Below are positions 6,807 to 63,310 of a stretch of DNA of 64,000 nt, piece after piece. The DNA comes from an uncultured Bacilli bacterium. GTDB lineage: Bacteria > Bacillota_I > Bacilli_A > RF39 > UBA660. Under the pieces are notes generated by a model, which saw only the letters and a list, made by a program, of their open reading frames with translations, was not told the origin of the DNA and ran no database searches. The stretch is taken from assembly GCA_934154785.1 (NCBI GenBank), contig CAKPGL010000001.1, forward strand, positions 266,814-330,813. The letters run 5' to 3'. The stretch's first letter is position 1. The number at the start of each line of letters is the position of its first letter. A program made the translations under genes and the position numbers.

Positions 6807-6835
6807 TTGACTAATGAATTTTTATGATATACAAT
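6807..6835 (+). promoter_or_regulatory. sigma-A type promoter for nrdD
   Basis: TTGACT-17-TACAAT with a TG two nt upstream (extended -10-like). The ORF-track ATG at 6824 lies inside it. Confidence 0.45.
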
Positions 6836-6859
6836 TTAGGTGTAAAAAGTAGGAGAGAG

Positions 6860-9362: not shown

Positions 9363-9926
9363 ATGAAAATACGTTTAGCAACACCTAATATTCAAAAAGA
9401 TAGTGTTGTTGATGGTGAAGGTATCAGGGCAGTTATTTGGACGCAAGGTTGTTCTCACAACTGCCCTGGTTGTCATAATCCTGAAACACATGATTTTAAT
9501 TCAGGATATTTAGTAGATATTTGTGATGTAAAAAAACAAATTGAAGAATTGGTTGCTTCTCATAATGGAATAACATTATCTGGTGGAGACCCTTTAATGC
9601 AGGTAGATTCTTGTTTGGAATTAGCTAAATATGCTGAAAGTTTAGGGTTAAATGTTTGGTGTTATACAGGTTTTACTTTTGAAGAATTATTACTAGCGTC
9701 AAAATCAAAGCCTATTATAAAAGAATTCTTGAATACTATTGATGTATTAGTAGATGGAAGGTTTAAAATAGAAGAAAAAACCTTTGATGCTATATTTAGA
9801 GGTTCAAGAAATCAAAGAGTAATCGATACAAAAAAAAGTTTAATTAAAAATAAAGTTGTAGAAATACCTAAATATAAGGTAAATAAACCTATAAAAAAGG
9901 TACCAGAACAACATCTTTATATATAG
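9363..9926 (+). CDS. nrdG: anaerobic RNR activating protein (radical SAM)
   Basis: GCSHNCPGCHNPETH CxxxCxxC radical-SAM motif. 187 aa. ATG immediately after the stop of the small ORF. Confidence 0.85.
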   Translation: MKIRLATPNIQKDSVVDGEGIRAVIWTQGCSHNCPGCHNPETHDFNSGYLVDICDVKKQIEELVASHNGITLSGGDPLMQVDSCLELAKYAESLGLNVWCYTGFTFEELLLASKSKPIIKEFLNTIDVLVDGRFKIEEKTFDAIFRGSRNQRVIDTKKSLIKNKVVEIPKYKVNKPIKKVPEQHLYI

Positions 9927-15039: not shown

Positions 15040-16409
15040 AGAAGTTGAAATATTTAATAGTTACGATATTATTAACATCTTGCTTTTTGCCAATGAGTAC
15101 TTTAGCAGTAGGTAGTATTGATGTTTCTACAACAAACTTAAACATTACCAAAGGTAAAACTGCAACATTTACAGTAACCGCAAATAATGCTGCAGGTAGA
15201 ATAGACATATCATCATCCAACCCCTCTGTTGCAAGCGTTTCAAATTCCAGTGTATTTTTGGATATGCAAAGCAGCACTATTACTGTTACAGGTAATAGTG
15301 CTGGTACTACAATAATTAAAGTACAAGTAACTGATGCAACTACTTACGATGATGAAGATTTATCGTTAACAACGTATACTATTACAGTAAATGTAACTGA
15401 TCCAACAAGTAGCAATAACAATAATAACGATAATAATAGTAATAATAACAATAATACAAGTAACCTATCTAAGAACAACAAATTAAAAGAGTTATCTGTA
15501 GAAGGATTTGAACTCGTAAAAACTGGTAATAATAATTATACATTACTAGTAAGTAATGATATAACTAGTGTAAATATTAAAGCTATAGCAGAAGATAATA
15601 AGGCTAAAATTTCTGGCACTGGTTCTCATGAGTTAAAAATTGGTGAAAATAGTATTGACATTGTTGTAACATCAGAATCAGGTTTAAAAAACAAAATAAA
15701 TATTAAGGTAACTAGAAAAGATGGTTATGATTTGAATGATTTAGAAAAATTACTTAATGATTCTAATGTAAATGATATTAATGTTAATATTAATCTTGGA
15801 GATACAATATCTTCTAATTTATTAGAATTAATTAAAAATAGTAAAAAAGTTGTTAGATTAAACTACTTTGATGATAATAAAAAATTAGTATATAGTTGGA
15901 TTATTGATGGTTCTAAAATTGAATCTGTAAAAGAATTTTCTACTGATGTATCTTTGGTATCAGAAAACAAGCAACAAATAGATAAATTGTCTAATTATGC
16001 TAATGGAATATGCGTTAATATCAAACATTCTGGAGATCTCCCAGTGGGTACAAAAATTAAATTATATGTTGGTGATAACTATTTAGATGGGAATTTACTA
16101 AATGTTTATTATTATAATAGTATAAATAAAAAATTAGATTTAATTAAAGATAACTTATTAGTAGAAACTGGTTATATTGAATTTTCTGTAGAACATTCTT
16201 CTGAATATTTTATAACAATGTCTAATATAGGTGAAGCTACAACTAAAAATATTACATCTACTAAATATAATATATTTATTATTGTATCGGTAATTGAATT
16301 TATCATTATTGTATGTATGATAACCTTCTATATCTTAAAAGTTAAGTGTACTAAGTTTAACAAGAATAAAAGTAATATTACGGAAAAACCTATTTATATT
16401 GAAGAATAA
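15036..16409 (+). CDS. membrane-anchored surface protein with Big_2-like and cadherin-like beta-sandwich domains and a C-terminal TM anchor
   Basis: ATGA start/stop overlap with the upstream gene (translational coupling). Signal peptide. Big_2-like NLNITKGKTATFTVTANN...SNPSVASVS. Asn-rich linker. Cadherin-like LKELSVEGFELVKTGNNNYTLLVSNDITSVNIKAIA. C-terminal hydrophobic IFIIVSVIEFIIIVCMITFYIL plus basic tail. Confidence 0.55.
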   Translation: MKKLKYLIVTILLTSCFLPMSTLAVGSIDVSTTNLNITKGKTATFTVTANNAAGRIDISSSNPSVASVSNSSVFLDMQSSTITVTGNSAGTTIIKVQVTDATTYDDEDLSLTTYTITVNVTDPTSSNNNNNDNNSNNNNNTSNLSKNNKLKELSVEGFELVKTGNNNYTLLVSNDITSVNIKAIAEDNKAKISGTGSHELKIGENSIDIVVTSESGLKNKINIKVTRKDGYDLNDLEKLLNDSNVNDINVNINLGDTISSNLLELIKNSKKVVRLNYFDDNKKLVYSWIIDGSKIESVKEFSTDVSLVSENKQQIDKLSNYANGICVNIKHSGDLPVGTKIKLYVGDNYLDGNLLNVYYYNSINKKLDLIKDNLLVETGYIEFSVEHSSEYFITMSNIGEATTKNITSTKYNIFIIVSVIEFIIIVCMITFYILKVKCTKFNKNKSNITEKPIYIEE

Positions 16410-25707: not shown

Positions 25708-26829
25708 ATGGAAAAAAGAGATTATTATGAAGTCCTAGGAGTTAGTAAGACTGCTAGTGATGATGAAATAAAAAGTGCTTTTAGAAAATTAGCAAAGAAG
25801 TATCATCCAGATGTTTCTAAAGAACCAGATGCTGCGGAAAAATTTAAAGAGGCTCAGGAAGCATACGCTGTATTATCTGACGCTAATAAAAGAAAACAAT
25901 ATGACCAATTTGGTCATGCAGCATTTGAACAAGGCGGTGCTGGAGGTGCCGGTGGCTTTGATTTTTCTGGTTTTGATTTTTCAGATATTTTTGGCGATTT
26001 GTTTGGCGGAAACTCTGGCTTTGATTTTGGCTTTGGTGGTAGTCGTGGTGGTAGAAACAGTAATCGTGCCACTAAAGGAAGAGATTCTTTAATTAAAATG
26101 GATTTAACTTTTGAAGAAGCTGTATTTGGATGTAAAAAGGATGTCAAAGTAGATACCTACGAAGAATGTAAAGACTGTAAAGGTAATGGTGGAACTGGTG
26201 AAACCAAATGCCCAGAGTGCCACGGTAGTGGTATTTCTACTACAGAACAAAGAACTTTATTTGGAACTTTTATGAGTAGAACTACTTGTTCTAGATGTGG
26301 TGGCCATGGAAAAATTTATGAAAGTAAGTGTTCTACTTGCCGTGGTGAAGGTAAAGTAAGAGTAAATAAAACTTTATCTGTAACTGTTCCAGCAGGAGTT
26401 GATACTGGTAACCAATTACGTTTGGCAGGTAAAGGCGAAGCCGGAACAAATGGTGGACCTAATGGCGACATCTATCTAGAATTTAGTGTTAAAGAACATC
26501 CATTATTTAAACGTGACGGAAATGATATATATATAGATTTTCCGATTACAATAACAGAAGCTATATTTGGATGTAAAAAAGAAGTACCAACTATTTCTAG
26601 TAGTGTTAAATTAACCATAGATGCTGGTGCGGAAACTGGTGACAAATATCGTTTACGTGGTAAAGGTGTTGAAGATGTTCATTCTTCTCGTAAGGGCGAT
26701 ATGTATGTAGTCATAAAAGTTATGATACCAAGAAAAATAAATAGAGAACAGAAAAAATTATTAGAACAATTGGCAGATACAGATTTAACTAACGCTGATG
26801 AAACTAAAATAATCGAAAAATACTTATAA
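25708..26829 (+). CDS. dnaJ: chaperone DnaJ
   Basis: J-domain DYYEVLGV...HPD. G/F-rich linker. Four CxxCxGxG zinc-finger repeats. Confidence 0.9.
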
Positions 26830-26852
26830 AGACCTACCTTGGTCTTTTTTTC
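26829..26852 (+). terminator. rho-independent terminator after dnaJ
   Basis: AAGACC-tacctt-GGTCTT followed by a T7 run. Confidence 0.65.
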
Positions 26853-26938
26853 TTTATTTAATAATGCTTTTGGAAAAAAATCTTCAAAATTAGTTTATCT
26901 ATGTTCATAAAAAATGATACAATGTTATTGGTGATAGT

Positions 26939-28051
26939 ATGAAATATGATTATTTAATAGTTGGTTCTGGTCTTTTTGCTGCTACATTTGCTTTTGAAAT
27001 GACAAAGCACGGTAAAAAGTGCCTAGTTATTGAGAAAAGAAATCATGTGGGTGGCAATGTATATTGTGAAAAAATTAATAATATTAATGTTCATAAATAT
27101 GGACCACACATATTTCATACCTCTAATAAAGAAGTATGGCAGTATGTTAATCAATTTACAGAATTTAATAATTTTGTTAATCAACCTTTAGCATGCTACA
27201 AAAATGAAATATATAATTTACCATTCAATATGAATTTATTTGTTCAACTATGGAGAGATGTAAAAACTCCAGAGGATGCAATAAATAAAATTACGTCTCA
27301 AGTTAAAAGCGCCAATATTACTGAGCCCAAAAATTTGGAAGAGTTTGCTATATCACAAGTAGGTAAAGACATATATGATAAATTTATAAAAGAATATACC
27401 GAAAAGCAATGGGGAAGACCATGTGACAAGTTACCAATGTTTATTATTAAAAGAATTCCAGTTCGATATACATTTAATAATAATTATTTTAATGATATTT
27501 ACCAAGGAATTCCTGTTTTAGGATATAATCACATAATAGAAAAAATGCTTGAAAAATGTGATGTTGTTTTAAATGTAAATTATAATTTAGAAAAAGACAA
27601 ATATAAATTCATGGCAAAAAAGGTATTATATACCGGCATGATTGATGAATATTTTAATTATGAATTTGGTCCTTTAGATTATCGTTCTTTAAAATTTGAA
27701 AATGAAATTTATAGTAATATAGATAATTATCAAGGTAATGCTGTTGTTAATTATACTGATAAAAGTGTCAAATATACAAGAATAGTAGAACATAAGTTTT
27801 TTGAAAATAACACTTGTAAGGGTACAATTATAACAAAAGAGTATCCATTTGCTTATGACAAATCTACAGAAGCTTACTATCCTGTAAATGATGATAAAAA
27901 TAATAGTTTGTATGAAAAATATAGAACACTATGTTCAAAGGAAAAAGATGTGTTATTTGGTGGTAGATTAGGAGATTATAAATACTATAATATGGACGAA
28001 ACAATAGAAAAAGCTTTAGCGCTTAGTAAGGTAGAACTAAATGAAAAATAA
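26939..28051 (+). CDS. glf: UDP-galactopyranose mutase
   Basis: MKYDYLIVGSGLFAATFA...VIEKRNHVGGN...HKYGPHIFHT, near-identical in pattern to E. coli Glf. 370 aa. Confidence 0.9.
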   Translation: MKYDYLIVGSGLFAATFAFEMTKHGKKCLVIEKRNHVGGNVYCEKINNINVHKYGPHIFHTSNKEVWQYVNQFTEFNNFVNQPLACYKNEIYNLPFNMNLFVQLWRDVKTPEDAINKITSQVKSANITEPKNLEEFAISQVGKDIYDKFIKEYTEKQWGRPCDKLPMFIIKRIPVRYTFNNNYFNDIYQGIPVLGYNHIIEKMLEKCDVVLNVNYNLEKDKYKFMAKKVLYTGMIDEYFNYEFGPLDYRSLKFENEIYSNIDNYQGNAVVNYTDKSVKYTRIVEHKFFENNTCKGTIITKEYPFAYDKSTEAYYPVNDDKNNSLYEKYRTLCSKEKDVLFGGRLGDYKYYNMDETIEKALALSKVELNEK

Positions 28052-29489
28052 AAATAGTTCATTGACAAAAAATTATATTTATAATTTAATTTATCAACTA
28101 TTTACATTCTTACCATTACTAATAATAACCCCTTATTTATCCCATGTTCTTGGTGCTCAAAAAATAGGTATATATAGTTTTACAACGTCAATACTTTCAT
28201 ATTTTGTATTGTTTGGATGTTTAGGTGTAAATTTATATGGTCAAAGGCAAATAGCCGCAACTAGAAATAATTTAAAGAAAATGACTAACACATTTTATGA
28301 ACTATTTTTCTTAAAAACTATATTTATTTTGCTAAGTTCATTAGTTTATATTTGTTTTTGCTTTAGTGATTCTGTTTATGGAGTATATTATAAAATACTT
28401 ATTTTTCAACTACTATTTAATATTTTTGATATAACGTGGTTTTATCAAGGAATAGAGGATTTTAAAACTATATCAGTTCAAACCATGATTGTTAAAATAG
28501 TCCTAACATTATCAATTTTTCTATTTATTAAAGATGAAAACTCATTATTAATATATTTTATTATAATGGTGATATCATATTGCCTTACACAAACTTTATT
28601 ATTAATACATTTAAAAGAGAATATTGGTAAATTTAATATTAAAGAAATAAATATATTTAAGCATTTTAAAAATACAATTATAATATTTATTCCACAAATT
28701 GCTATTCAAATTTATACAGTTTTAGATAAAACGATGATTGGCTGGATTCTTAATGACATGAAAGAAGTAGGTTACTATGAACAGGCTCAAAAGTTAATTC
28801 ATTTATGTTTAATGGTGATTACTTCGTTTGGAACTGTTATGGTACCACGAATTTCTAATCTTTATGCAAAACAAAAGCAAGATGAATTAAATGAAAAAAT
28901 TAATCAGTCTTTTAAAGTGGTATCATTTATAGCATTCCCAATGTGCTTTGGATTAATGGCTATAACCAATTGTTTAGTCCCTTGGTTTTTTGGTGAACAA
29001 TTTATTTCATTAAATAAATTACTACCAGTATTAAGTTTACTTTTTTTAGCAATTGGTTTTAATAATATAACAGGAATTCAGTATGCTATATCAACAAGTC
29101 ATCAACAAAAATTTACAGTGTCAGTTATCGTTGGGGCTTTAATAAATATAGTGTTAAACTTGATATTGATTCCAAATTATGGAGCATTAGGTGCTTCCAT
29201 AGCGTCAGTTGTTGCGGAAACAGTCATATTTATTGTTCAAATATTTTACTTTAAATCTATATTTGATTTTAAAAAAATATTTTTATCAAATATAAAATAT
29301 TTCTATTTTTCTATTATAATGGCAATCGTGGTATATATAGTAGGAATGATTTTTTCAAGCAATATTTTTACAACAGTTTTACAAATTGCAATTGGTTTAG
29401 TAATTTATTTTGTCTTATTACTAATTAGCAAGGATGATTTTTTATATCAACAATTAAATATGATTAAAGCTAAATTTATCAAGCATTAA
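28041..29489 (+). CDS. wzx: polysaccharide biosynthesis flippase (Wzx/RfbX-type, MOP superfamily)
   Basis: 482 aa with about 12-14 TM helices. Overlaps the glf stop by 11 nt. Typical Wzx hydropathy and N-terminal pattern. Confidence 0.65.
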   Translation: MKNKNSSLTKNYIYNLIYQLFTFLPLLIITPYLSHVLGAQKIGIYSFTTSILSYFVLFGCLGVNLYGQRQIAATRNNLKKMTNTFYELFFLKTIFILLSSLVYICFCFSDSVYGVYYKILIFQLLFNIFDITWFYQGIEDFKTISVQTMIVKIVLTLSIFLFIKDENSLLIYFIIMVISYCLTQTLLLIHLKENIGKFNIKEINIFKHFKNTIIIFIPQIAIQIYTVLDKTMIGWILNDMKEVGYYEQAQKLIHLCLMVITSFGTVMVPRISNLYAKQKQDELNEKINQSFKVVSFIAFPMCFGLMAITNCLVPWFFGEQFISLNKLLPVLSLLFLAIGFNNITGIQYAISTSHQQKFTVSVIVGALINIVLNLILIPNYGALGASIASVVAETVIFIVQIFYFKSIFDFKKIFLSNIKYFYFSIIMAIVVYIVGMIFSSNIFTTVLQIAIGLVIYFVLLLISKDDFLYQQLNMIKAKFIKH

Positions 29490-29518
29490 AATTTATGATG
29501 TGAGGTGTTATAACACAA

Positions 29519-31501
29519 ATGAGAATAAAAAAAATTATTAAAAAAATAATAGGTGAAAACAAAATAATTAAGTATCATAAAGTTAATTCTTTGTATAATG
29601 ATTCCAATATATTAAAAAAATTTGTATTAATAAAAAATATTAAGGTTTATACTAGTACTAATTTTTCTAGAATCCTAGTTGATTCAAAAGAAAATATATT
29701 ATTTTCCGAACATTATGCTTACTTTGTAGATTTTAAATATTTAATAAAGTATACTGATACATTAAATAAAAATATGACACCAGATTATAGTATTATTTTA
29801 GAAAATAGTTTAAACGACTTAAAAGAAAAATTTAAGGGAAATTCTACCGAAACTGCATTTATCTTGGAATTAGAAAACTATATCGATACATATATTAATA
29901 AAATATGTAGTTACAATATTAAAAACAAAAATAACATTATTAAATATATTGAAAACATAAAAACAAAAAAATGTAAAAGTTTTATAGAGGCTATTCAACG
30001 TATTTTATTTTTTAATCAACTATTTTGGCAATTTGGATATAATTTATGTGGCTTAGGTAGAATAGATTTTTTATTAGATTATTATTATGAAAAAGATAAA
30101 AAGCAAAAGAAAATAGATGAAAATGAAACTAGAGGTTTAATTCAAGAATTTTATTATTTGTTGCACCAATACTACAATGAAAAAAGCAATTGTTTAATTG
30201 GTGATACTGGTCAAATTATAGTTGTAGGAGGCATGGATAAAAATAATGTAAATTTTGAAAATGATTTAACTTTATTTTTGCTAGAGGAATTAAAAAAATT
30301 TAATAAACCAGAACCTAAAATATTTTTAAGAGTTAATAAAGATACATCTAACAAAATATTAGAGACTGCTATTTCTTGTATTGCTAGTGGCATCGGGTCT
30401 CCTTTAATATCAAATGATAAAATTGTAATTCCTAAATTAATAAATTTTGGATATGATGCTTCAGATACTTGGAATTATGTGCCTGCAGCATGTTGGGAAC
30501 CATCAATTTGTGGAAATTCAATAGATTTAAACAACAATTTCATTATAAATTTGTTGGAACCATTAAAAGACTTAATTAAAGAAAACGAAAACTTTACATT
30601 AGAAAAAATAGAAGACATTTATATAAATAATTTAATAACATATCTTGATACAATGATACAAAAGCATCGTGTTATTAATTACGATAAACAACCATACTTA
30701 TCACTTTTTATAAAAGATTGTATTAATAACAAAGCAATGATTTCTGCTGAAATTATAAAATATAAAAACGTTGGTTTTACGATGATTGGACTACCAAATG
30801 TTGTTAATAGCATTCTAAATATTGAAACAATTATTAGTAAAAAAATAATTAGTGTTTCGGAATTGATTTTGGCTAAAAAAAATAATTTTCAAGAAGAATA
30901 TATATTAGATATATTAAAAAACAATAATTCAAATGGCTTTGGTTCAAGTAATGAACACGCTATAGAATTAACAAATAAAATAATCAATACTGTTTCTACA
31001 ACTTTAGATAAATATCAAACAAATTATGGTGGTAAATTTAAGTTTGGTTTAAGTTCACCTTCATATGTAGAAATCGGTAAAAAGACTTTAGCTACTTATG
31101 ATGGTAGAAAGAACTATGAACCATTAGGAAATCATATTTCATCACTATATAACAACTATTTAGATTTAATGGAATTTGCTAGTAAAATAAAATATCCTAA
31201 AAATTGTATAAATGGTAATGTAGTAGATTTTATAATTAATACATCTTTTATAGAAAATAATATGGAAAAATTTACAAAATATATAAAGGCATATTTAAAT
31301 AGAAATATTTATCAATTACAAATAAATGTACTTGATAGTAAAACTTTAATGGCTGCAAAAGCTAATCCAGAGTTATATAAAAATCTAATTGTCAGAGTTT
31401 GGGGATTTAGTGCTTATTTTAATGATTTACCAGAAGAGTATAAGGATATTATTATAAAAAGAGCTATTAGTGCCGAAAGGAATTATATTGATAATGAATA
31501 A
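29519..31501 (+). CDS. compact glycyl radical enzyme (PFL-like fold; eliminase/dehydratase-type C-x-E active site)
   Basis: C-terminus NLIVRVWGFSAYFNDLPEEYKDIIIKRAISAE aligns to the PFL radical motif [23 protein letters not shown]. Also GLGRIDFLLDYYY, SGIGSPLISND, active-site loop VPAACWEPSICG (Cys-x-Glu), TMIGLPN, SSPSY...YDGR. Only 660 aa, so shorter at the N-terminus than typical ~800-aa GREs. Confidence 0.8.
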   Translation: MRIKKIIKKIIGENKIIKYHKVNSLYNDSNILKKFVLIKNIKVYTSTNFSRILVDSKENILFSEHYAYFVDFKYLIKYTDTLNKNMTPDYSIILENSLNDLKEKFKGNSTETAFILELENYIDTYINKICSYNIKNKNNIIKYIENIKTKKCKSFIEAIQRILFFNQLFWQFGYNLCGLGRIDFLLDYYYEKDKKQKKIDENETRGLIQEFYYLLHQYYNEKSNCLIGDTGQIIVVGGMDKNNVNFENDLTLFLLEELKKFNKPEPKIFLRVNKDTSNKILETAISCIASGIGSPLISNDKIVIPKLINFGYDASDTWNYVPAACWEPSICGNSIDLNNNFIINLLEPLKDLIKENENFTLEKIEDIYINNLITYLDTMIQKHRVINYDKQPYLSLFIKDCINNKAMISAEIIKYKNVGFTMIGLPNVVNSILNIETIISKKIISVSELILAKKNNFQEEYILDILKNNNSNGFGSSNEHAIELTNKIINTVSTTLDKYQTNYGGKFKFGLSSPSYVEIGKKTLATYDGRKNYEPLGNHISSLYNNYLDLMEFASKIKYPKNCINGNVVDFIINTSFIENNMEKFTKYIKAYLNRNIYQLQINVLDSKTLMAAKANPELYKNLIVRVWGFSAYFNDLPEEYKDIIIKRAISAERNYIDNE

Positions 31502-32369
31502 CAAACTTATTGTTAATTCTATTCAGAGATCTTGTTTTCATGATGGACCAGGTATAAGAACAACTGTGTTTTTACATTCTTGTTCTTTAAAATGTCCTTG
31601 GTGTTCAAATCCTGAATGTAGCATGACAAACTACAGGTATGTAATTAACAATCGTTGTCGTAAATCTAATGGCAAATGTATTTATAATATAGATTGTCCT
31701 AGTACTAAGAATAAAAAATCAAACGATGATTTGAAAAGTTTTATAGATAAGTGCCCAGTTTTAGCTATAGAAAATAATTTTAGACCATATTCTATTGACG
31801 AATTAAAAGAAACTTTAGTTCAAGATAAATTTTTATTTGACACAGAGGGCGGGGTAACATTTTCTGGAGGAGAACCATTATTACAAAGTTATAATCTTGG
31901 TGAACTTATTAAAGAATTAAAAAAAGAGCAAATCAATATTGCCGTTGAAACATGTTTATTTGTGAAACATGAAAATTTATTGTCTGTAGTTGATGATATT
32001 GATTTATTTATAGTTGATTTAAAAATTTTGGATGCTAAAGAATGTTCCAAGATATTAGGTGGAGATCTTAAAGAGTTTTTAAATAATATAGAAATTTTAT
32101 TTGCTAAAAAGAAGGATATCGTTTTTCGTGTGCCACTTATTAAACCATATATTACAAATAAAAATAATATGTCGCTTATATATAAATTTCTTACTAGATA
32201 TAAACCTTTAAAAGTTGAGTTATTAAAAGGTCATAATTTAGCCAAAGAAAAATACCAAAAATTAGGTATTGAATACAAATTAGTTTCAACTATAAACGAA
32301 ACAGAAATAAATGATATTTTAAAAGAAATGACCAACATAGGAATAAACGCTACTATTATAGATTTTTAA
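31494..32369 (+). CDS. glycyl-radical enzyme activating protein (radical SAM, with extra ferredoxin-like Cys cluster)
   Basis: SIQRSCFHDGPGIRTTVFLHSCSLKCPWCSNPE (CxxxCxxC). Additional cysteines C-x12-C-x6-C-x5-C...C. Start ATG 31494 overlaps the GRE stop; the ORF track begins at 31470. Confidence 0.8.
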   Translation: MNNKLIVNSIQRSCFHDGPGIRTTVFLHSCSLKCPWCSNPECSMTNYRYVINNRCRKSNGKCIYNIDCPSTKNKKSNDDLKSFIDKCPVLAIENNFRPYSIDELKETLVQDKFLFDTEGGVTFSGGEPLLQSYNLGELIKELKKEQINIAVETCLFVKHENLLSVVDDIDLFIVDLKILDAKECSKILGGDLKEFLNNIEILFAKKKDIVFRVPLIKPYITNKNNMSLIYKFLTRYKPLKVELLKGHNLAKEKYQKLGIEYKLVSTINETEINDILKEMTNIGINATIIDF

Positions 32370-33146
32370 TTAATTAAAACCTATAAATCGTAGCATTTTT
32401 CTTTTTATAATACCTAGACGTTGTTTAAAAAGGGGTTCTTCAATATTATATACAGGTAATTCTTTAATTTTTAATTTGTCTTTGTTTTTTTCGATATAAA
32501 CATTTAGTAGTCTTTCTGATATAAATCCAAATACTCTTTTATTGTAATCGTCGTATTTGCTTATATCGATTTTCTTTTCTAAATCAAATAATATATCAAA
32601 AAGCCAATTACAGTAATCATCCAAAAACTCTTTTTTTGCTATTATCATATTGAAACAATATGCCCATTTTTTTTTCAATACTATATCAAAACTAGTTTCA
32701 AATTCAGGATATTTCTTTTTTATAATGTTTTTACATTCTAGTAAGTCTTTAATGTGATGTTTAACATCGTAATTGTTTTCAACTGATATATTAAAATAGT
32801 ATGGCATTGGTAGAATTATATCATACTTGTTTGTTATTTTATTTATATCGTTTTTTGATAAAATATTCTTTTTACTTTTAAAGATATTTTTATAGAAATA
32901 TCTACGATAATGACATAATCCAAGCACTTTATCTTTTTTAATATTTTTCCACATATAATAAATAACTGTTAATTCACAATAATTAGGATTCTTAGAAGAT
33001 ATATTAATTCCTTCGTCGTCTTTTAAGTATCCTAATTCTTTGTTAATTTTAGCACCACATTGTATAGGAATATATCCTTGTTTTAGAGGAAAATCAAATT
33101 TTTTATGTATTGCTACAAAGATTTCAATTGACTTCATTAATATCAC
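32370..33146 (-). CDS. DUF4422-like putative glycosyltransferase (capsule/Galf-associated family)
   Basis: 258 aa. IFVAIHKKFDFP...NPNYCELTVIYYMWKN...CHYRRYF...FGFISERLLNVYI pattern typical of DUF4422 proteins in polysaccharide loci. Its stop abuts the activase stop (convergent, no gap). Confidence 0.45.
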   Translation of the reverse strand: MILMKSIEIFVAIHKKFDFPLKQGYIPIQCGAKINKELGYLKDDEGINISSKNPNYCELTVIYYMWKNIKKDKVLGLCHYRRYFYKNIFKSKKNILSKNDINKITNKYDIILPMPYYFNISVENNYDVKHHIKDLLECKNIIKKKYPEFETSFDIVLKKKWAYCFNMIIAKKEFLDDYCNWLFDILFDLEKKIDISKYDDYNKRVFGFISERLLNVYIEKNKDKLKIKELPVYNIEEPLFKQRLGIIKRKMLRFIGFN

Positions 33147-33253
33147 CTTACTTCTATAAACTATTTTATATTGATTTGGTTACAATGTAAATATTATATT
33201 TTAAAAATATTAATACTGTGTTATAATAATTTTATCAAATAGGAGACAAAGAT

Positions 33254-34432
33254 ATGAGTTTTTTTGATAAATTGAATAATAAATTTTCTAAATTTTATGA
33301 TAAAGTTACAACTATTGAAACTATTCGCAATATATTTTTTTATTTGGGAATTACACTATTTTTTATTGGTGATTCCTCTGATTATTCGATTATAGGTTTT
33401 ACCCCATTGGTTAAAAATTTATTGCTATACTCAGGTTTTACGTTATTAGTATTAAAGATATTTTTAACACAAGAAAGTTTATATAATTACATCAAGTATT
33501 TTATTTACATTTTGATAGCGATTATTCTTGATAATATCATTGGTACCAAAGTAATTGCCTTATCAATTGTTCTTTATATTATTAGTTCAAAAAAAGTAGA
33601 CATAAATAAATTTTTTAAATATCTTTTTTTTATAAATAGTATTATTTTAATTTTTAATTTGTACGTTTATATAGCAAATCAGTTCTTGGATTTTAATTTA
33701 TTTGGCGCTAGAATTTCTCCAGAATATTATTTGTATCGTAATAATTTAATTAGACATGGATTTTATTTTTATCATCCAAACGCATTTTCTTTTTATTTAT
33801 TTTGGACATATATGTTATATATATATTTACAATGGGATAGTTTTAAAAGCGCAAAACAATATATTAAAGTTTTTATTGCTTCCGTATTACTAGCAATAGT
33901 ATGCTTCTTTTGTACACAAACAAGGATCGCAACTATATTTTTCTTAATAACAGTACCGTTATTGTTTGTTTTTAAAAATAAAAAATTTCAAAATAGTAGG
34001 TTAATCAAATGGATTTTATCATACTTTTATGTAATTTTATTTATCATTTCTATGTTATTATTAGTTTCATATGGCTTAAATAATGTGTTAGGTGTAATTT
34101 CTTTAAAAATAAGTGATATTTTAAACGGCAGAATATGGTTAGGTAATTTAGAATTAACAAAATATGGTTTAACGCTGTTTGGCCAACCTGGTTTAGCATC
34201 AAAATTTTTTGTGGTTGACAATGGATATTATCATATTTTAATTAAGTATGGTTTATTAGCAACATTGTTCTTTCTGTGTTTGTTTGTTAAAACATCTAAA
34301 CGTTTATGTATTAACAAGGATTATAAATGTTTATATTTAATAACGTTATTTTGTGTATATAATTTTATTGAGGCTTTGTTAGTTCACCCACAAGCATGTA
34401 TTATTTATGCAATTTTAGGAATGTTTATTTAA
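33254..34432 (+). CDS. polysaccharide polymerase-like membrane protein (Wzy/EpsG family)
   Basis: 392 aa, about 10-11 TM helices, Phe/Tyr-rich. No catalytic motif recognisable. Placement next to glf/wzx. Confidence 0.4.
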   Translation: MSFFDKLNNKFSKFYDKVTTIETIRNIFFYLGITLFFIGDSSDYSIIGFTPLVKNLLLYSGFTLLVLKIFLTQESLYNYIKYFIYILIAIILDNIIGTKVIALSIVLYIISSKKVDINKFFKYLFFINSIILIFNLYVYIANQFLDFNLFGARISPEYYLYRNNLIRHGFYFYHPNAFSFYLFWTYMLYIYLQWDSFKSAKQYIKVFIASVLLAIVCFFCTQTRIATIFFLITVPLLFVFKNKKFQNSRLIKWILSYFYVILFIISMLLLVSYGLNNVLGVISLKISDILNGRIWLGNLELTKYGLTLFGQPGLASKFFVVDNGYYHILIKYGLLATLFFLCLFVKTSKRLCINKDYKCLYLITLFCVYNFIEALLVHPQACIIYAILGMFI

Positions 34433-34547
34433 AAAATTAGTATTATCTTGTAATATAAGGATATTAATTGTTATTTTTGTTAAAAATGGAATTCACAAGG
34501 ATAAATATCCATGATATAATATATCTTGATTGAAAAGGAGATTTTTT

Positions 34548-35090
34548 ATGAATGATATTTTAATGGAAACTGAATTAAAAATGGAGTCCGCTATTGAGAA
34601 TATGGATAAAAGATTATTAAATATTCGTGCGGGACGTGCTAATCCATCTATATTAGATGGTGTAATGGTATCTTATTATGGAGCACCAACACCATTAAAA
34701 CAACTTGCTACTATATCTGTACCTGAAGCTAGACAATTAATGATTAAACCTTTTGATAGAAGTTGTTTATCCGCTATTGAAAAAGGTATATATGAAGCAA
34801 ATGTTGGACTTACACCAAACAATAATGGTGAAGTAATAATATTAAATATTCCAGCACTAACTGAAGATACTAGACGTGAATATGTTAAACAAGCTAAGAC
34901 TGTTGCGGAAGAATGCAAAATTGCTCTTCGTAACATTAGACAAGACGCTAATAACGATATTAAAAAGTTAGAAGTGCCAGAAGATGATATTAAAAATGGT
35001 CAAGATGAAGTACAAGAATATATTAATAAATATAATAAAATAGTAGATGAAAAATTAAAGATGAAAGAACAAGAATTGATGACAGTATAG
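34548..35090 (+). CDS. frr: ribosome recycling factor
   Basis: AAAGGAG RBS then ATG 34548. MNDILMETELKMESAIENMDKRLLNIRAGRANPSILDGVMVSYYG is the canonical Frr N-terminus. The ORF track starts at TTG 34530. Confidence 0.9.
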   Translation: MNDILMETELKMESAIENMDKRLLNIRAGRANPSILDGVMVSYYGAPTPLKQLATISVPEARQLMIKPFDRSCLSAIEKGIYEANVGLTPNNNGEVIILNIPALTEDTRREYVKQAKTVAEECKIALRNIRQDANNDIKKLEVPEDDIKNGQDEVQEYINKYNKIVDEKLKMKEQELMTV

Positions 35091-35689: not shown

Positions 35690-36853
35690 ATGTTTAAAAG
35701 AAAAGCTAATTCGGCTAAATTAGATACTGGCAACTTAAATGAAGTAATTACATTATCGAAAGCCATTTTAAAAATACTTTTTGTAGTTATGATTATTGCG
35801 GGAGTCTATGGTTTAACAATTTTATTAAAAGAGTTAGGAATAACTAAATTCTTTGTAGAATTACTAAAGATAATTTCACCTTTATTTATAGGTATTGTAA
35901 TAGCGTGGTTATTTAATCCTCTTATGAAGTTCTTTTCTAAAAAGGGAATTCGTAGAGGACTTGGTGCTGCTATAATATATATTGCTTTAAGTGCTATAAT
36001 TTTTCTTTTAATAAAAGCTATAATTCCACTTATGTTTGAACAAATTAATGATTTAGTAAGTACTATACCATCAACATTAAAGGGAATTGTTAATTGGATT
36101 AGTGACTTATTTAATAAAGTTAGTAATAATTCTAATGTTGATTTAACTAGCGTTAAAACAGAAATTATTTCTAAAATAGAAAACTATGGTATGAATATTG
36201 CTAGTTCTCTTCCAGAAGTTATGGTTAATACAGTAAAATCATTCTTTTCTGGTATTGGTACATTTTTAATAGGAGCAATTATTGGTTTTTTCTTACTTAT
36301 TAGTTTTGATGGAACTGATAAAGTAATGGATTTTTTACCAGATAAAATACATAATAATGTAACATCTTTATTTAGTAAAATAGAAGACTCTTTAAGAAGA
36401 TATGTCCAGGGAACTTTAACACTATCTACTTTAGTATTTGTTGTAAGTACAATAGGATTTATGATAAGTGGTTTAAAATCTGCTTTATTATTTGGATTAT
36501 TTTGTGGCATCACCAATATTATTCCTTATGTTGGTCCTTACTTAGGAGCGGCACCAGCATTAATAGTTGGTTTTTCCCAAGGAACACCAATAGGTATTGG
36601 GGTCCTAATAACAGTAGTTATAGTTCAAACTATTGAAGGTAATATATTAAATCCAATTGTAATGAGTAAAACTATGAAACTACATCCTGTTACAATTATA
36701 ATAGGATTATTAGTATTTGAACATTTCTGGGGTATTCTAGGAATGATTCTTGCAACACCGATAATTGCGACAATTAAAGTTATTTTTGAATACTTTAATG
36801 AAAAATATGGTATAATAAATAAGAAATTTGAACAAAACGTTGAAGAAGAATAG
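35690..36853 (+). CDS. AI-2E family transporter (UPF0118/PerM-like)
   Basis: 387 aa, about 8 TM helices. PALIVGFSQG...ILNPIVMSKTMKLHPV pattern typical of the AI-2E family. Confidence 0.65.
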   Translation: MFKRKANSAKLDTGNLNEVITLSKAILKILFVVMIIAGVYGLTILLKELGITKFFVELLKIISPLFIGIVIAWLFNPLMKFFSKKGIRRGLGAAIIYIALSAIIFLLIKAIIPLMFEQINDLVSTIPSTLKGIVNWISDLFNKVSNNSNVDLTSVKTEIISKIENYGMNIASSLPEVMVNTVKSFFSGIGTFLIGAIIGFFLLISFDGTDKVMDFLPDKIHNNVTSLFSKIEDSLRRYVQGTLTLSTLVFVVSTIGFMISGLKSALLFGLFCGITNIIPYVGPYLGAAPALIVGFSQGTPIGIGVLITVVIVQTIEGNILNPIVMSKTMKLHPVTIIIGLLVFEHFWGILGMILATPIIATIKVIFEYFNEKYGIINKKFEQNVEEE

Positions 36854-36867
36854 TACATAATTATTAA

Positions 36868-37030
36868 TTGATAGAGAGCTTATGGTTGATGGAAATAAGT
36901 AATTAATATTATGGAAGCTACTTTAGAGTGTAGTTAAATACTACCGGTGTAAACCGTTATAATAATTAAGTTTAATTAGGATGGTACCGCGGCTTTTTCG
37001 TTCCTAGAAATAGTGGCGGTTTTTCTTATT
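36868..37030 (+). promoter_or_regulatory. T-box riboswitch leader, probable Ala (GCU) specifier
   Basis: AGAGAG box (36873-78). Specifier-loop context GAAGCUACUUUAGAG (GCU at 36917-19) is parallel to the thrS leader UUACUACUUAAGAG. Conserved T-box AAUUAGGAUGGUACCGCGG (36974-36992). Downstream U-rich terminator-like segment GGCGGTTTTTCTT. Confidence 0.75.
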
Positions 37031-37047: not shown

Positions 37048-37599
37048 ATGGAATATATTGATAAAAAACCAAAGATTTATGTGATTTCAGGTAAAGCAAA
37101 AAGTGGTAAAGATACGATTGCTAATATAATTTGTAATTACTATAAAGATAAAAAATGTAAAAAGATATCTTATGCCTACTATTTAAAAGAATATATTAAA
37201 AATATATTTGATTGGGATGGCAAAGAAGAAACTAAACCAAGAGATCTATTACAGAGTATTGGTATTGATTTACTACAAAAAAAGATTGATGAACATTTTT
37301 TAATAGATAGAGTTGTAGAAGATATAAAGGTTTATTCTTACTTTTATGATGTAATAATTATAACTGACGCTAGACTGGTAGATGAAATAGAAATACCTAA
37401 AAATAAATTTTCTAATGTTACAACTATTAGAATAAATAACAATAGTGATAATGATTTAACACTAGAACAGAAAAAACATATTACAGAAACAGCTTTGGAT
37501 AATTATACTAATTTTGATTATGTAATAAATAATACAAGTGATTATAATGCTTTAAAACAAAGTGTTAATAAAATTTTGGAGGTAAATCATGAAAAATAA
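37048..37599 (+). CDS. deoxynucleoside-monophosphate kinase-like P-loop protein (phage T4 gp1-like)
   Basis: KIYVISGKAKSGKDTIANII vs T4 gp1 KLIFLSGVKRSGKDTTADFI. LLQSIGIDLL vs LMQALGTDLI. IIITDARLVDE vs IVPDTRQDHE. KHITETAL vs THITEAGL. Confidence 0.55.
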   Translation: MEYIDKKPKIYVISGKAKSGKDTIANIICNYYKDKKCKKISYAYYLKEYIKNIFDWDGKEETKPRDLLQSIGIDLLQKKIDEHFLIDRVVEDIKVYSYFYDVIIITDARLVDEIEIPKNKFSNVTTIRINNNSDNDLTLEQKKHITETALDNYTNFDYVINNTSDYNALKQSVNKILEVNHEK

Positions 37600-38143
37600 T
37601 ATTATAGCAATAGTAGGTATGTGTGGTGCTGGTAAATCTGTTGCGTCAGATATTCTAGAAAATAAAGGGTACAAAAAAGTATACTTTGGTGGCGTTACCA
37701 TGGAAAAATTAAAAGAAGAAGGATTAGAAATTAATCCAGAAAATGAACGTATGATGCGTGAGCGTCTTAGAAAAGAATTAGGTATGGGAGCATTCGCTAA
37801 AATATTATTACCAAGAATAAAAGAATACGCTAAAGAAGGTAACACCGTACTTGATGGTTTGTATTCTTGGGATGAACTTAAAATATTAAAAGATGAATTT
37901 GGTGATGATTTAACTTTAATAGCGGTAATTGCTGATAAAAATATTCGTTATGAAAGATTATCCAAAAGGGAAATTCGTCCATTTACTAAAGATGAGGCTA
38001 TAAAAAGAGATTTAACAGAAATAGAAAATGTTGCCAAAGCCGGACCAATTGCGTATGCAGACTATTACATAGATAATAATCATGACTTAGAAAGTTATAA
38101 AAATAGATTAAATAATATTTTAGATATTATTGGAGGTAAATAA
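37589..38143 (+). CDS. P-loop nucleoside/nucleotide kinase-like protein
   Basis: IIAIVGMCGAGKSV Walker A. Arg-rich lid-like segment RYERLSKREIRPF. Overlaps the neighbours by 11 and 14 nt (coupled). Confidence 0.5.
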   Translation: MKNNIIAIVGMCGAGKSVASDILENKGYKKVYFGGVTMEKLKEEGLEINPENERMMRERLRKELGMGAFAKILLPRIKEYAKEGNTVLDGLYSWDELKILKDEFGDDLTLIAVIADKNIRYERLSKREIRPFTKDEAIKRDLTEIENVAKAGPIAYADYYIDNNHDLESYKNRLNNILDIIGGK

Positions 38144-38144
38144 A

Positions 38145-39902
38145 ATGAATTTAAAAGATTTATATATAAATTTCTTTATAAGTAAAGGACACAAACAAAT
38201 ACCTAGTGCTCCAGTTATACCAGAAAACGATCCCTCAGTACTTTTTAATACTGCGGGAATGCAACCATTAGTACCTTATTTAATGGGACAACCCCATCCT
38301 TATGGCACTAGACTTGTTGATTATCAAAAATGTATTCGTACTAATGATTTAGAAAGTATTGGAGATACTACACATCATACTTTCTTTGAAATGTTAGGTA
38401 ATTGGAGTTTAGGTGATTACTTTAAAAAAGAGAGTATTAGTTGGAGTTTTGAATTTTTAACTAAAGTATTAAATATGCCAGTAGAAAGACTTGCTGTAAC
38501 AGTATTTGCTGGTAATGATAAAATAGAAGAAGATAAAACCTCTATTGAAATATGGAAAAGTTTGGGCATTAAAGAAAGTAGAATTGCTAAAACTAAAGAT
38601 GATAATTTTTGGATAGCAGGTGAAACTGGTCCTTGTGGCCCAGATTCAGAAATATTCTATTTCCGTAGTGATGATGAAATACCTGAAGTATTTGACCCAG
38701 AAGATTCTCGTTGGGTAGAAATTTGGAATAACGTATTTATGCAATATAATAAAGATGCATCTGGTAATGTTACAGAACTACCAAAGAAAAACGTTGATAC
38801 TGGTATGGGAGTAGAAAGAGTAACAGCAGTATTGGAAGGTGTTAATGATAACTACATGACTTCTATTTGGAAAGATGTTATTTCTAAAATAGAAGAACTT
38901 TCTCATAAAAATTATAATGATTCTGAAGAAATTAAAAAGAGTATGCGTATTATAGCGGATCATATTCGTACTGCAGTATTTATTTCTGCTGATCCTGCAG
39001 GAATCAAACCATCTAATACTGATCAAGGATATATTCTAAGAAGACTTATTAGACGTGCTATTAGACATGCTAAAAAATTAAATATTGATGAGAATAGTAA
39101 TTGGGAACAACAAATAGCGTTAATCATTTTAGATAAATATGCTAAGTATTATCATGAACTTGTTGATAATAAAGATGTTGTTTTAGAAGTACTTACTAAT
39201 GAAAAAAATAAATTTAATCGTACTCTAGAAAAAGGTTTAAAAGAGTTTGAAAGAATTACTAAGAATATTACTGATGGTAAATTAAATAAAGATTTAGCAT
39301 TTAAATTATATGATACTTATGGTTTTCCAATTGAACTTACAGTAGAACTAGCTAGTGAACTTGGAATCAAAGTAGATGTAGAAGGCTTTAAAGAAAAATT
39401 TAAGGCTCATCAAGAATTATCTCGTGCAGGAGCAGAACAAAAATTTAAAGGTGGTCTTGCTAGTACTGGTGAAATAGAAACTAAATATCATACTGCAACA
39501 CACTTACTAAATGCCGCTTTAAAAGTAGTAGTTAATAAAGATGTACATCAAAAGGGTAGTAATATTACTTCTGAAAGAATGCGTTTTGACTTCTCTTGTG
39601 ATCATAAATTAACGGATGAAGAAAAGAAAGCGACAGAAGATTTAGTAAATAAATGGATTAGTGAAGGAATACCAGTAGTAGTTACAGAAATGAAAAAGGA
39701 AGACGCTGTTAAATCTGGAGCGGAATGTATGTTTATTGAAAAATATCCAGATATTGTAACAGTATATTCAATAGGTGATGTATCAAAAGAACTTTGCGGT
39801 GGACCACATGTAAAAAATACAAATGAACTAGGACATTTTAAAATTCAAAAAGAAGAAGCTAGTAGTGCTGGCGTTAGAAGAATTAAGGCTATTTTAGAGT
39901 AG
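38145..39902 (+). CDS. alaS: alanyl-tRNA synthetase, short form (aminoacylation plus editing domains, no C-Ala domain)
   Basis: GGAGG RBS then ATG 38145. FISKGHKQIPSAPVIPENDPSVLFNTAGMQP, QKCIRTNDLESIGDTTHHTFFEMLGNWSLGDYFK, editing-domain HTATHLLNAALK and CGGPHV motifs. 585 aa, whereas a typical AlaRS is about 870 aa. Confidence 0.85.
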   Translation: MNLKDLYINFFISKGHKQIPSAPVIPENDPSVLFNTAGMQPLVPYLMGQPHPYGTRLVDYQKCIRTNDLESIGDTTHHTFFEMLGNWSLGDYFKKESISWSFEFLTKVLNMPVERLAVTVFAGNDKIEEDKTSIEIWKSLGIKESRIAKTKDDNFWIAGETGPCGPDSEIFYFRSDDEIPEVFDPEDSRWVEIWNNVFMQYNKDASGNVTELPKKNVDTGMGVERVTAVLEGVNDNYMTSIWKDVISKIEELSHKNYNDSEEIKKSMRIIADHIRTAVFISADPAGIKPSNTDQGYILRRLIRRAIRHAKKLNIDENSNWEQQIALIILDKYAKYYHELVDNKDVVLEVLTNEKNKFNRTLEKGLKEFERITKNITDGKLNKDLAFKLYDTYGFPIELTVELASELGIKVDVEGFKEKFKAHQELSRAGAEQKFKGGLASTGEIETKYHTATHLLNAALKVVVNKDVHQKGSNITSERMRFDFSCDHKLTDEEKKATEDLVNKWISEGIPVVVTEMKKEDAVKSGAECMFIEKYPDIVTVYSIGDVSKELCGGPHVKNTNELGHFKIQKEEASSAGVRRIKAILE

Positions 39903-58660: not shown

Positions 58661-59002
58661 GGGGCTGTTCAGGTTTCGACAGATATAGATGACTATGAAT
58701 TGCAAGTCGAAGGTACGCGTTAAGTACAAAAAATAATAACTGGAAACAGAAATCAATTAGCTTTCGCTTAATAGAAATTTAGAAGGCGCTTCTTATTATC
58801 ATTTTCTACGGGGTATTAAGAGGCTCGATTTAGTAGAATATATTTATACTAATGCTTATAGGTATAAATGAATAACATAAGCTAACTAATTTATTGGTTG
58901 TTGATTACTTTATAAATTAGAACATTTATTAATCAACTAAACTTGTAGATATTTATAGAAAGATATATTTGGACAGGAGTTCAATTCTCCTCAGCTCCAC
59001 CA
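58661..59002 (+). ncRNA. ssrA: tmRNA (SsrA)
   Basis: 5' end GGGGCTGTTCAGGTTTCGACAG. 3' tRNA-like end GGACAGGAGTTCAATTCTCCTCAGCTCCACCA. Internal tag reading frame ...ACU GGA AAC AGA AAU CAA UUA GCU UUC GCU UAA UAG gives a tag ending ...NRNQLAFA with a double stop. Confidence 0.9.
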
Positions 59003-63086: not shown

Positions 63087-63139
63087 ATTAAACGTGATAA
63101 AATAAAAAACGAAAGCGAAGATTAAGACAAGATTATATA

Positions 63140-63310
63140 AAGAGTTTTTTAGAGAGTTTGTGGTCGGTGAAAACAAATAAATGAATTATATAGTTACTAC
63201 TTAAGAGCAGGACTCGAAAGATGTTCCCGGTAATACCGTTATAAAAATTAAGACCAAAGTAGGATGGTACCGCGCATATTCGCTCCTTATATATTTATAA
63301 GGAGTTTTTT
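63140..63310 (+). promoter_or_regulatory. T-box riboswitch leader with Thr (ACU) specifier
   Basis: AGAGAG (63151-56). Specifier UUACUAC (ACU at 63196-98). T-box AGGAUGGUACCGCG (63261-74). Perfect terminator CTCCTTATA-tat-TTATAAGGAG followed by a T6 run (63284-63310). Confidence 0.8.

Follow-up and report, generated by a model that had tools for sequence, protein, structure and literature searches.

A compact glycyl radical enzyme encoded in galactofuranose-linked glycan-assembly loci and its proposed role in glycan tailoring

What a glycyl radical enzyme (GRE) might do inside a surface-glycan locus is the question raised by a 64,000-nucleotide stretch of DNA from an uncultured Bacilli bacterium (contig CAKPGL010000001.1, positions 266,814 to 330,813). 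In this whole stretch, here called the window, a 660-aa GRE and its radical S-adenosylmethionine (SAM) activating enzyme (AE, or activase) are encoded between the flippase gene wzx and a predicted galactofuranosyltransferase gene. Our analysis suggests that a known radical platform serves here in an anabolic, membrane-coupled role not described before. In the reading that we prefer, the GRE would perform a tailoring step in the assembly of a surface glycan containing galactofuranose (Galf), acting on a Galf-bearing precursor between sugar transfer and flipping. We give this reading a probability of roughly 55%.

The identity of the protein was established by profile, motif and fold. The Pfam searches proposed in an earlier note on this DNA returned a PFL-like match (3.2e-51), with residues 139-514 on profile positions 238-640 of 647, and a Gly_radical match (1.6e-12). 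The PFL-like match begins at profile position 238, so the protein lacks the N-terminal portion of the canonical domain. The peptides which that note had quoted as GRE landmarks are all present (VRVWGFSAYFNDLPEEYKDIIIKRAIS, SGIGSPLISND, TMIGLPN, SSPSY...YDGR and VPAACWEPS), and the open reading frames of the enzyme and its neighbours lie where it had placed them. The enzyme and its catalytic loops are as follows:

29519-31501, + strand: compact GRE, 660 aa (Pfam PFL-like and Gly_radical, AlphaFold2 model, Foldseek)
30488-30502, + strand: Cys loop A324-C325-W326-E327-P328 with the CxE motif (thiyl radical Cys and general-base Glu), from alignment with glycerol dehydratase (GDH) C433/E435 and the PflD Cys loop
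31394-31420, + strand: glycyl radical loop R626-V-W-G629-F-S-A-Y-F, with R626, V627, W628, G629, F630 and S631 invariant (Pfam Gly_radical)

In an alignment of 84 sequences, C325, W326, E327 and P328 were invariant, A324 was nearly so, and the radical Gly629 was retained throughout. About 100 representative clusters, formed at 50% identity, likewise retained the signatures [ST][SA]ACWEP and RVWGFS[AST], which settles in the affirmative whether the radical Gly and the active-site Cys survive careful alignment. The invariant C325-W-E327 places the protein in the CxE class, as had been read from the window alone, and PFL-type (Cys-Cys) acetyl transfer was rejected on this motif. An AlphaFold2 model built on the 84 homologs (pLDDT 91.3, pTM 0.92) matched at least 50 GRE structures in Foldseek with probability 1.00 and template-modelling scores of 0.73-0.80; GDH, propanediol dehydratase (PD) and PflD scored 0.75-0.80, and CutC, HypD and others were also superposed within the full range. 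The RVxG[FYW] motif, a catalytic Cys at the centre of a ten-stranded barrel and a nearby activase are all present, as in other members of the PFL-like GRE branch. From these motifs, the modelled fold and the adjacent activase, the 660-aa protein is predicted to be a catalytically competent GRE.

Within this branch, the sequence comparisons point to a distinct compact subfamily, as the earlier note had suspected from the length of the protein. Identity to every solved GRE is 18-23%, the score falls below every NCBIfam GRE family cut-off, and both score and pocket residues set the protein outside the GDH/PD, PflD/YbiW, HypD, CutC and sulfonate-lyase families. Family members are about 640-700 aa long (median 676 aa in the loci examined), and about 70 N-terminal residues of solved GREs are absent from the window enzyme in the profile alignment. 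An N-terminal amphipathic membrane-anchor helix, considered from the KKIIKKII start, was rejected (family median hydrophobic moment 0.46 against a background of 0.47), leaving Lys-richness as the only notable remnant of this N-terminus. Additionally, a sister group of compact GREs was observed (P0221, P0223, P0226-P0250; L169, L170), with about 640-700 aa, 27-30% identity to the window protein and the signatures AACWEF[IV] and RVWGWSG. The contexts of the distant compact GREs (P0203, P0221, P0244; sister group) were read from contigs of 2-4 kb only.

The genomic setting carries the argument for a biosynthetic role. Neighbouring genes were clustered and annotated in 86 non-redundant loci from genomes and metagenomes, and the glycan context inferred for the window recurred throughout: all 86 loci are glycan-assembly operons, and a catabolic or microcompartment context for the compact GRE was found in 0 of the 86. 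The neighbours include GT2 and GT4 glycosyltransferases, Wzx, ABC-2 or GtrA-type export, Glf, GT111, short-chain dehydrogenases/reductases (SDRs), LicD, TarI-like proteins, NeuB and pyruvyl transferases. The activase lies within 4 kb of the GRE in 77 of these loci. Wzx adjoins the GRE tightly, in either gene order; about a third of the loci use ABC or GtrA exporters and are without the Glf-linked Wzx. Synteny of the GRE with wzx and glf, which the earlier note had thought worth surveying, and with Galf transferase genes extends from Clostridia to Methanobacteria. When one genome per species was scanned, the family signature was identified in at least 590 species genomes. The carriers listed, all gut or rumen anaerobes, include Clostridia, Lachnospiraceae, Oscillospiraceae, Bacilli/Tenericutes, Bacteroidales, Coriobacteriia and Synergistaceae, together with an Aeromonadales metagenome-assembled genome, nine assemblies of Methanobrevibacter and Breznakiella, a spirochaete of termites. 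Breznakiella homolactica RmG30, Lachnospiraceae bacterium NC2008 and P6A3, and Pilosibacter fragilis are carriers in culture. A role for the GRE in glycan biosynthesis is, in our judgement, highly probable.

Fusion proteins were identified with two kinds of partner. In three loci (L049, L051, L063), the GT2-family enzyme GT2b and the whole GRE form a single in-frame open reading frame of 989-996 aa, whose representative (P0131) heads a 146-member cluster present on many contigs. Wzx-GRE fusions were found in two forms, P0155 (1125 aa) and P0202 (1053 aa), each known from three distinct full-length proteins in independent assemblies and each retaining SACWE and RVWGFSAYF; one such fusion has the context GT111-GTs-Glf-[Wzx-GRE]-AE. 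In other Wzx/MOP flippases the C-terminus is reported to be cytoplasmic, and if this holds for the fused Wzx, the GRE domain would be anchored on the cytoplasmic side of the membrane. Dehydration or elimination on a sugar, the chemistry put forward in the earlier note, is also what we infer, and the fusions with a GlfT-like glycosyltransferase and with Wzx strengthen it.

Other arrangements were recorded around the GRE. In some regions, two divergent GRE (and AE) copies occur within about 10 kb, as in L064 (1-1950 and 9479-11524), and L050 also holds two GRE copies. A second radical-SAM gene (Radical_SAM and Radical_SAM_C) directly follows the activase in a Wzx-GRE fusion locus (L168:12114-13019). 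In one clade (11 loci), a small protein with a Rossmann-like domain, U11 (about 135 aa), is encoded 3-60 bp upstream of the GRE (L026:9582-9992, L055:4617-5015, L079:9420-9866 and others). Some copies have an N-terminal transmembrane helix, and the PglD_N match is weak but above threshold (26.7 bits against a gathering score of 23.4); U11 could be an accessory subunit. Furthermore, in the clade with GT2-GRE fusions, a fusion of 750-900 aa is encoded directly downstream of GRE-AE (L053:12742-15114, L049:5544-8267, L063:12688-14943), in which a polysaccharide pyruvyl transferase is joined to a ferredoxin and an FrhB/FdhB-like domain (F420 dehydrogenase beta). A role as redox partner or reductase for a carbonyl product is conceivable.

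Among the glycan genes, the GRE appears from these neighbourhoods to be associated with the galactofuranose machinery specifically, and not with Wzy. Galf markers were counted in the 41 loci whose flanks reach 8 kb or more on both sides: Glf was found in 27, GT111 in 17 and GT2b in 18, with at least one marker in 37. No other sugar-specific gene approached this frequency. DUF4422 corresponds to the GT111 Galf-transferase fold (PMC12269835), and the GT111 family profile matches the N-terminal domain of WbbM (6u4b) at 6.8e-59. In the case of GT2b, the best PDB match is mycobacterial GlfT2 (1.5e-17) and the best NCBIfam match is GlfT1. We consider it likely that the substrate of the GRE is derived from Galf.

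The GRE and AE genes behave as a unit that comes and goes. The Wzx proteins of GRE loci form one conserved subfamily (median identity 41%), and a separate metagenome scan of this subfamily recovered at least 498 loci, of which 80 were scored for the GRE; it was present in just 14, typically in the order Wzx>GRE>AE>Glf. In loci with adequate flanks, Glf lies within 6 kb of Wzx in 22 of 26 GRE-minus and 32 of 38 GRE-plus loci. Since the Wzx subfamily is Glf-linked with or without the GRE and few loci carry the GRE, GRE+AE is best described as an optional cassette, usually inserted between wzx and glf. On the same counts, Wzx was rejected as a dedicated partner of the GRE. A direct swap is seen between L106 (..GT111-GT4-Wzx-GRE-AE-Glf) and L113 (..GT111-GT4-Wzx-U9-Glf): GT111, GT4 and Glf are 98-99% identical in amino acids, the DNA sequences cease to be homologous exactly where GRE+AE in L106 gives way to U9 in L113, and Wzx identity drops to 74%. 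A swap accompanied by a diverged Wzx is what one would expect from a difference in the flipped unit. Compared with GRE-minus loci, those with the GRE are enriched for GT2b (17/38 versus 4/26), for the GtrB-like GT2c with DUF2304 (13/38 versus 1/26) and for U9 (12/38 versus 3/26).

U9 itself is a conserved soluble protein of about 325 aa with the motifs ILAGYKEF and KxDEDIF (L113:4733-5710; L009:8973-9956; L006:9019-9984). It adjoins the GRE in 18 loci and, in L113, stands between Wzx and Glf where L106 has GRE+AE. Searches of Pfam, NCBIfam and the PDB gave no match for it, and a distant relationship to GT111 was rejected (hhalign probability 0.4%); U9 may be a novel glycosyltransferase or tailoring enzyme.

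In the window, the GRE belongs to a six-gene island (glf, wzx, GRE, activase, GT111 and a multi-transmembrane gene) located between the heat-shock genes hrcA-grpE-dnaK-pepF-dnaJ and frr:

25708-26829: dnaJ (Pfam DnaJ)
26828-26847, + strand: terminator-like hairpin after dnaJ, a 7-bp stem followed by a T-run, at the upstream boundary of the island
26939-28051, + strand: glf, UDP-galactopyranose mutase for UDP-Galf synthesis (Pfam GLF 2.3e-74, NAD_binding_8)
28041-29489, + strand: wzx, predicted MOP flippase of the Glf-linked subfamily (Pfam Polysacc_synt 1e-25, 91.2 bits against 28.2; multiple transmembrane segments)
31494-32369, + strand: GRE-activating radical-SAM enzyme (TIGR02494 above cut-off, Cys analysis, start codon and ribosome-binding site)
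32370-33146, - strand: predicted DUF4422/GT111-type galactofuranosyltransferase (Pfam DUF4422 6.5e-80, 268.5 bits), convergent with the activase
33254-34432, + strand: multi-transmembrane protein with about 10 hydrophobic segments, possibly a polymerase or ligase (putative Wzy-like)
34530-35090: frr (Pfam RRF)

The gap between dnaJ and glf is 109 nt, and the island has lower GC content and GC skew. A promoter scan was uninformative in this DNA of 23% GC (66 matches against 75 expected). A relative (L001:3529-15622) carries the island at the same dnaJ-frr site (window 25708-35090), with a GRE 62% identical and two extra genes upstream of glf, encoding a GT4 and an Acyl_transf_3 O-acyltransferase. 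The position of the multi-transmembrane gene is kept there. The description of its product as a Wzy/EpsG-like polymerase stands only in part: it is a multi-transmembrane protein, but the Wzy_C match is sub-threshold (E=2.6, 8.3 bits against a cut-off of 31.7), no EpsG match was found, and the family assignment is unproven.

The activase open reading frame spans 31470-32369, and the likely start is the ATG at 31494, preceded by an AAAGGAA ribosome-binding site. The overlap with the GRE stop (8 nt) and the zero gap between the activase stop and the convergent DUF4422 stop are both as described earlier. TIGR02494 was matched at 223.6 bits (cut-off 174.35), along with Fer4_12 and Radical_SAM in Pfam, and the CX3CX2C motif (C30-x3-C34-x2-C37) lies at 31581-31604. 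The extra ferredoxin-like Cys cluster claimed for this protein was borne out only in part, as an atypical Cys-rich insert (31617-31754). The insert holds five Cys (C42, C55, C62, C68, C87; CX12CX6CX5CX18C) and not the canonical two CX2CX2CX3C motifs (8 Cys), and it is absent from about three quarters of the family activases, most of which have 0-1 Cys.

How the enzyme might act can be outlined from its class: every characterised CxE GRE proceeds by hydrogen abstraction, Glu deprotonation and beta-elimination (PMC13450708). The activase would install a radical on Gly629, to be relayed to Cys325. Glf would supply UDP-Galf, and GT111 (elsewhere a GlfT-like GT2) would attach Galf to a lipid-linked unit on the cytoplasmic side of the membrane. 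Next, the GRE would abstract a hydrogen from a carbinol carbon of this Galf, Glu327 would deprotonate the hydroxyl, and the ketyl radical would expel the beta leaving group. The most economical candidate would be loss of water from the exocyclic C5-C6 diol, giving a 5-deoxy-6-aldehydo or 6-deoxy-5-keto furanose, because this diol mimics glycerol/propanediol and the closest folds are diol dehydratases; taken specifically, 5,6-diol dehydration is doubtful. C-O ring cleavage of the PflD/YbiW type would be an alternative chemistry. The product would be a deoxy-carbonyl sugar, and the modified unit would then be flipped by its cognate Wzx. Galf as substrate, the lipid-linked stage and the regiochemistry are what we infer here, and we rate the chances of action at the lipid-linked stage as even.

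The substrate pocket was compared by profile alignment to solved GREs, including 1r8w. Two positions stand out:

29771-29773, + strand: Asn85, invariant, at the position of GDH His164 (profile alignment to 1r8w)
30530-30535, + strand: Asn338-Asn339, in place of GDH H446/D447 and the PflD His-Asp (N338 invariant, N339 at least 90% conserved)

GDH His164 is the proposed general acid (PMC13450708). GDH Tyr640 corresponds to Ser512, the GDH Tyr339 loop is deleted, and GDH H281/S282 are not conserved (Y174, N175); a G-D-T-G-Q motif is specific to the compact family. The alignment suggests that the CxE radical machinery is kept in a different pocket, roomier, with smaller side chains and an amide and hydroxyl lining. 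The residues expected to line it are N85, D229, T230, Q232, N338, N339, T421 and S512. Such an amide/hydroxyl-rich pocket would suit a sugar substrate.

Several observations weigh against a tailoring step on Galf between transfer and flipping. The substrates of characterised PFL-like GREs are all small and soluble. Asn85 stands where glycerol dehydratase has the general acid for protonating the departing OH, and the mechanism of a simple diol dehydratase can therefore not be taken for granted. The window island contains one glycosyltransferase and no priming phosphoglycosyl transferase, and the acceptor would therefore be made elsewhere; no reductase or aminotransferase able to process a reactive carbonyl product was found in it either. 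Glf is near just 27 of the 41 long-flank loci, and 4 are without any Galf marker. GT2b scores far below the GlfT1 cut-off and also resembles rhamnosyltransferases. The fusions prove functional coupling and not step order. Finally, the proposed role is drawn from sequence, gene context and predicted structure.

The same evidence can be arranged differently. The GRE could act one step earlier, on soluble UDP-Galf or another nucleotide sugar, yielding a new donor (e.g. UDP-deoxy-keto-hexofuranose) that a partner glycosyltransferase (GT111, GT2b or U9) would transfer. Channelling from GRE to glycosyltransferase would explain the GT2b-GRE fusion equally well, GRE+AE usually lies directly beside glf, and class III ribonucleotide reductase (RNR) is an example of a GRE handling nucleotides. 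Moreover, U11, encoded immediately upstream of the GRE in one clade, is a stand-alone domain resembling PglD_N, the nucleotide-sugar-binding N-terminal domain of the PglD/NeuD family, and in GT2c>GRE>AE>GtrA>GT-C loci the GRE sits between a polyprenyl-phosphate glycosyltransferase and its flippase. The Wzx-GRE fusions speak for the later stage, as they tether the enzyme to a membrane flippase. So does the co-variation of the Wzx allele with the GRE (74% against 98-99%), which a difference in the flipped unit would explain more readily, although that unit would also be altered by a modified donor. Action on a soluble donor is thus possible, at what we would call rather long odds. It is also conceivable that the GRE tailors a glycan on something other than Galf, such as ribitol- or glycerol-phosphate, a nonulosonic acid, a heptose or another ring, with the Galf link inherited from the Wzx-Glf module. 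TarI-like, LicD and NeuB genes in several loci, the 4 long-flank loci without a Galf marker and the lower counts in the 18 long-flank loci without the Glf-linked Wzx (Glf in 3, GT111 in 6) would fit this. We consider it improbable, given that 37 of the 41 loci have at least one Galf marker, no other sugar-specific gene is as frequent, GT2b, one of the fusion partners, has its closest similarity to Galf transferases, and the minimal island of the window holds only Galf genes besides the GRE.

Two further explanations fare worse. The missing general acid, the Wzx-GRE fusions and the tight adjacency to Wzx in either order could be accommodated by an O2- or redox-sensitive regulator or gate of the flippase, with export tied to anaerobiosis through the labile radical, or by a purely structural protein. 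Yet Gly, Cys, Glu and the polar pocket residues are invariant across roughly 35-100% identity, a third of the loci use ABC or GtrA exporters without this Wzx, a GT2-GRE fusion would make no sense for a gate, and no precedent is known; this reading is very unlikely. An ordinary catabolic or central GRE (like glycerol/propanediol dehydratase, PflD or PFL), placed beside polysaccharide genes by chance, is what the best database names ("formate C-acetyltransferase", "PFL2/glycerol dehydratase family") would imply. It is effectively refuted by scores far below every family cut-off (TIGR01774, 209 against 678 bits), the differing pocket residues, the absence of catabolic or microcompartment association in the 86 loci, the synteny conserved across phyla and domains, and the glycosyltransferase and Wzx fusions.

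Characterised PFL-like GREs all serve the fermentation or catabolism of small molecules according to a 2026 review (PMC13450708), which is silent on polysaccharide, glycan, capsule, nucleotide sugar and UDP. No description of a GRE in glycan biosynthesis was found in the literature searched. On a tentative view, the compact family would represent the first anabolic PFL-like GRE, a membrane-proximal radical dehydratase or isomerase, coupled to flippase and glycosyltransferase, that converts Galf (UDP-Galf or lipid-linked) into an undescribed deoxy-carbonyl furanose as an O2-sensitive, serotype-switching modification. If true, methanogenic archaea and hundreds of strictly anaerobic bacteria of gut and rumen would have an O2-sensitive glycan modification, and radical C-H activation would join the toolkit of polysaccharide biosynthesis. 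New surface sugar structures would be predicted on abundant gut Clostridia, Lachnospiraceae and Methanobrevibacter, with a biochemical reason why some glycan variants exist under anoxia only. The exchange of GRE+AE for U9 with a co-diverging Wzx suggests a contribution to antigenic or phage-receptor diversity. The Wzx-GRE and glycosyltransferase-GRE fusions are natural constructs for studying how tailoring and flipping are coupled, and the family as a whole, so far without annotation, offers GRE enzymology a target that can be tested directly.

The remainder of the window describes the host as a low-GC, spore-forming strict anaerobe: GC content is about 27%, and SpoIVA, NrdD/NrdG, a dockerin protein, T-box leaders and transfer-messenger RNA (tmRNA) are encoded. 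A second glycyl radical system consists of a class III NrdD at 6824-9181 (Pfam NRDD 3.6e-189, ATP-cone) and a 187-aa radical-SAM activase at 9363-9926 (Fer4_12 2.5e-38), and its presence confirms a strictly anaerobic lifestyle. A 1663-aa secreted-type protein (10048-15039) ends in a type I dockerin and also carries five Listeria-Bacteroides repeats and a papain-like Peptidase_C1 segment; it is followed by a 457-aa Big_2/cadherin-like protein (15036-16409). Two T-box leaders were identified (36831-37008 and 63109-63290). The former lies about 40 nt upstream of an open reading frame at 37048-37599, in a same-strand run that reaches an alanyl-tRNA-synthetase-like gene (38130-39902). The tmRNA (58661-59002) encodes the tag GNRNQLAFA.

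Compared with known systems, GDH/PD (PDB 1R8W and 5I2G) gave the best Foldseek matches (E 1e-34 and 5e-33) and share with the compact GRE the Gly loop, the CxE Cys loop and a TIGR02494-type activase. They act on vicinal diols, and Galf would present such a diol in its exocyclic C5-C6 group. The window enzyme differs in being 23% identical to them and about 125 residues shorter, with pocket residues replaced and a TIGR01774 score of 209.3 bits against a cut-off of 678.2. Unlike GDH/PD, compact GREs are always found in glycan operons and never in catabolic or microcompartment loci. PflD/YbiW (PDB 8ID0, 8YJO, 8ID7) gave the best PDB sequence matches (1.1e-43 with the single sequence, 3.3e-84 with the profile) and the lowest rmsd to the model (3.0 A). 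They are the only characterised GREs acting on a sugar-like ring and have the CxE motif (PMC13450708) in common with the compact GRE, converting 1,5-anhydromannitol/glucitol-6-phosphate to 1-deoxyfructose-6-P in the catabolic "anhydroglycolysis". Identity is 22%, the first-loop His is replaced by Asn85 and the His-Asp after the Cys loop by Asn, and the NF007437 score is 164 bits against a cut-off of 1109. PflD/YbiW act on small phosphorylated substrates and, unlike compact GREs, are not known to be fused to a glycosyltransferase or flippase.

Class III RNR (NrdD/NrdG) belongs to another GRE branch (Pfam NRDD, not PFL-like) and has no known relation to glycan loci. Acting on a nucleotide-bound sugar, it deoxygenates a furanose carbon beside a carbinol radical, with formate or thioredoxin as the external reductant that it requires. 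No other GRE is known to serve biosynthesis. NDP-hexose 4,6-dehydratases and other deoxysugar enzymes dependent on SDR folds or pyridoxamine phosphate offer a functional analogy only. In glycan clusters such enzymes make deoxy- or keto-sugars as tailoring steps, and SDR genes of the deoxysugar type occur in some GRE loci. These enzymes have an unrelated fold and cofactor (NAD+ hydride chemistry), whereas the GRE relies on a protein radical that needs strict anoxia and a radical-SAM activase.

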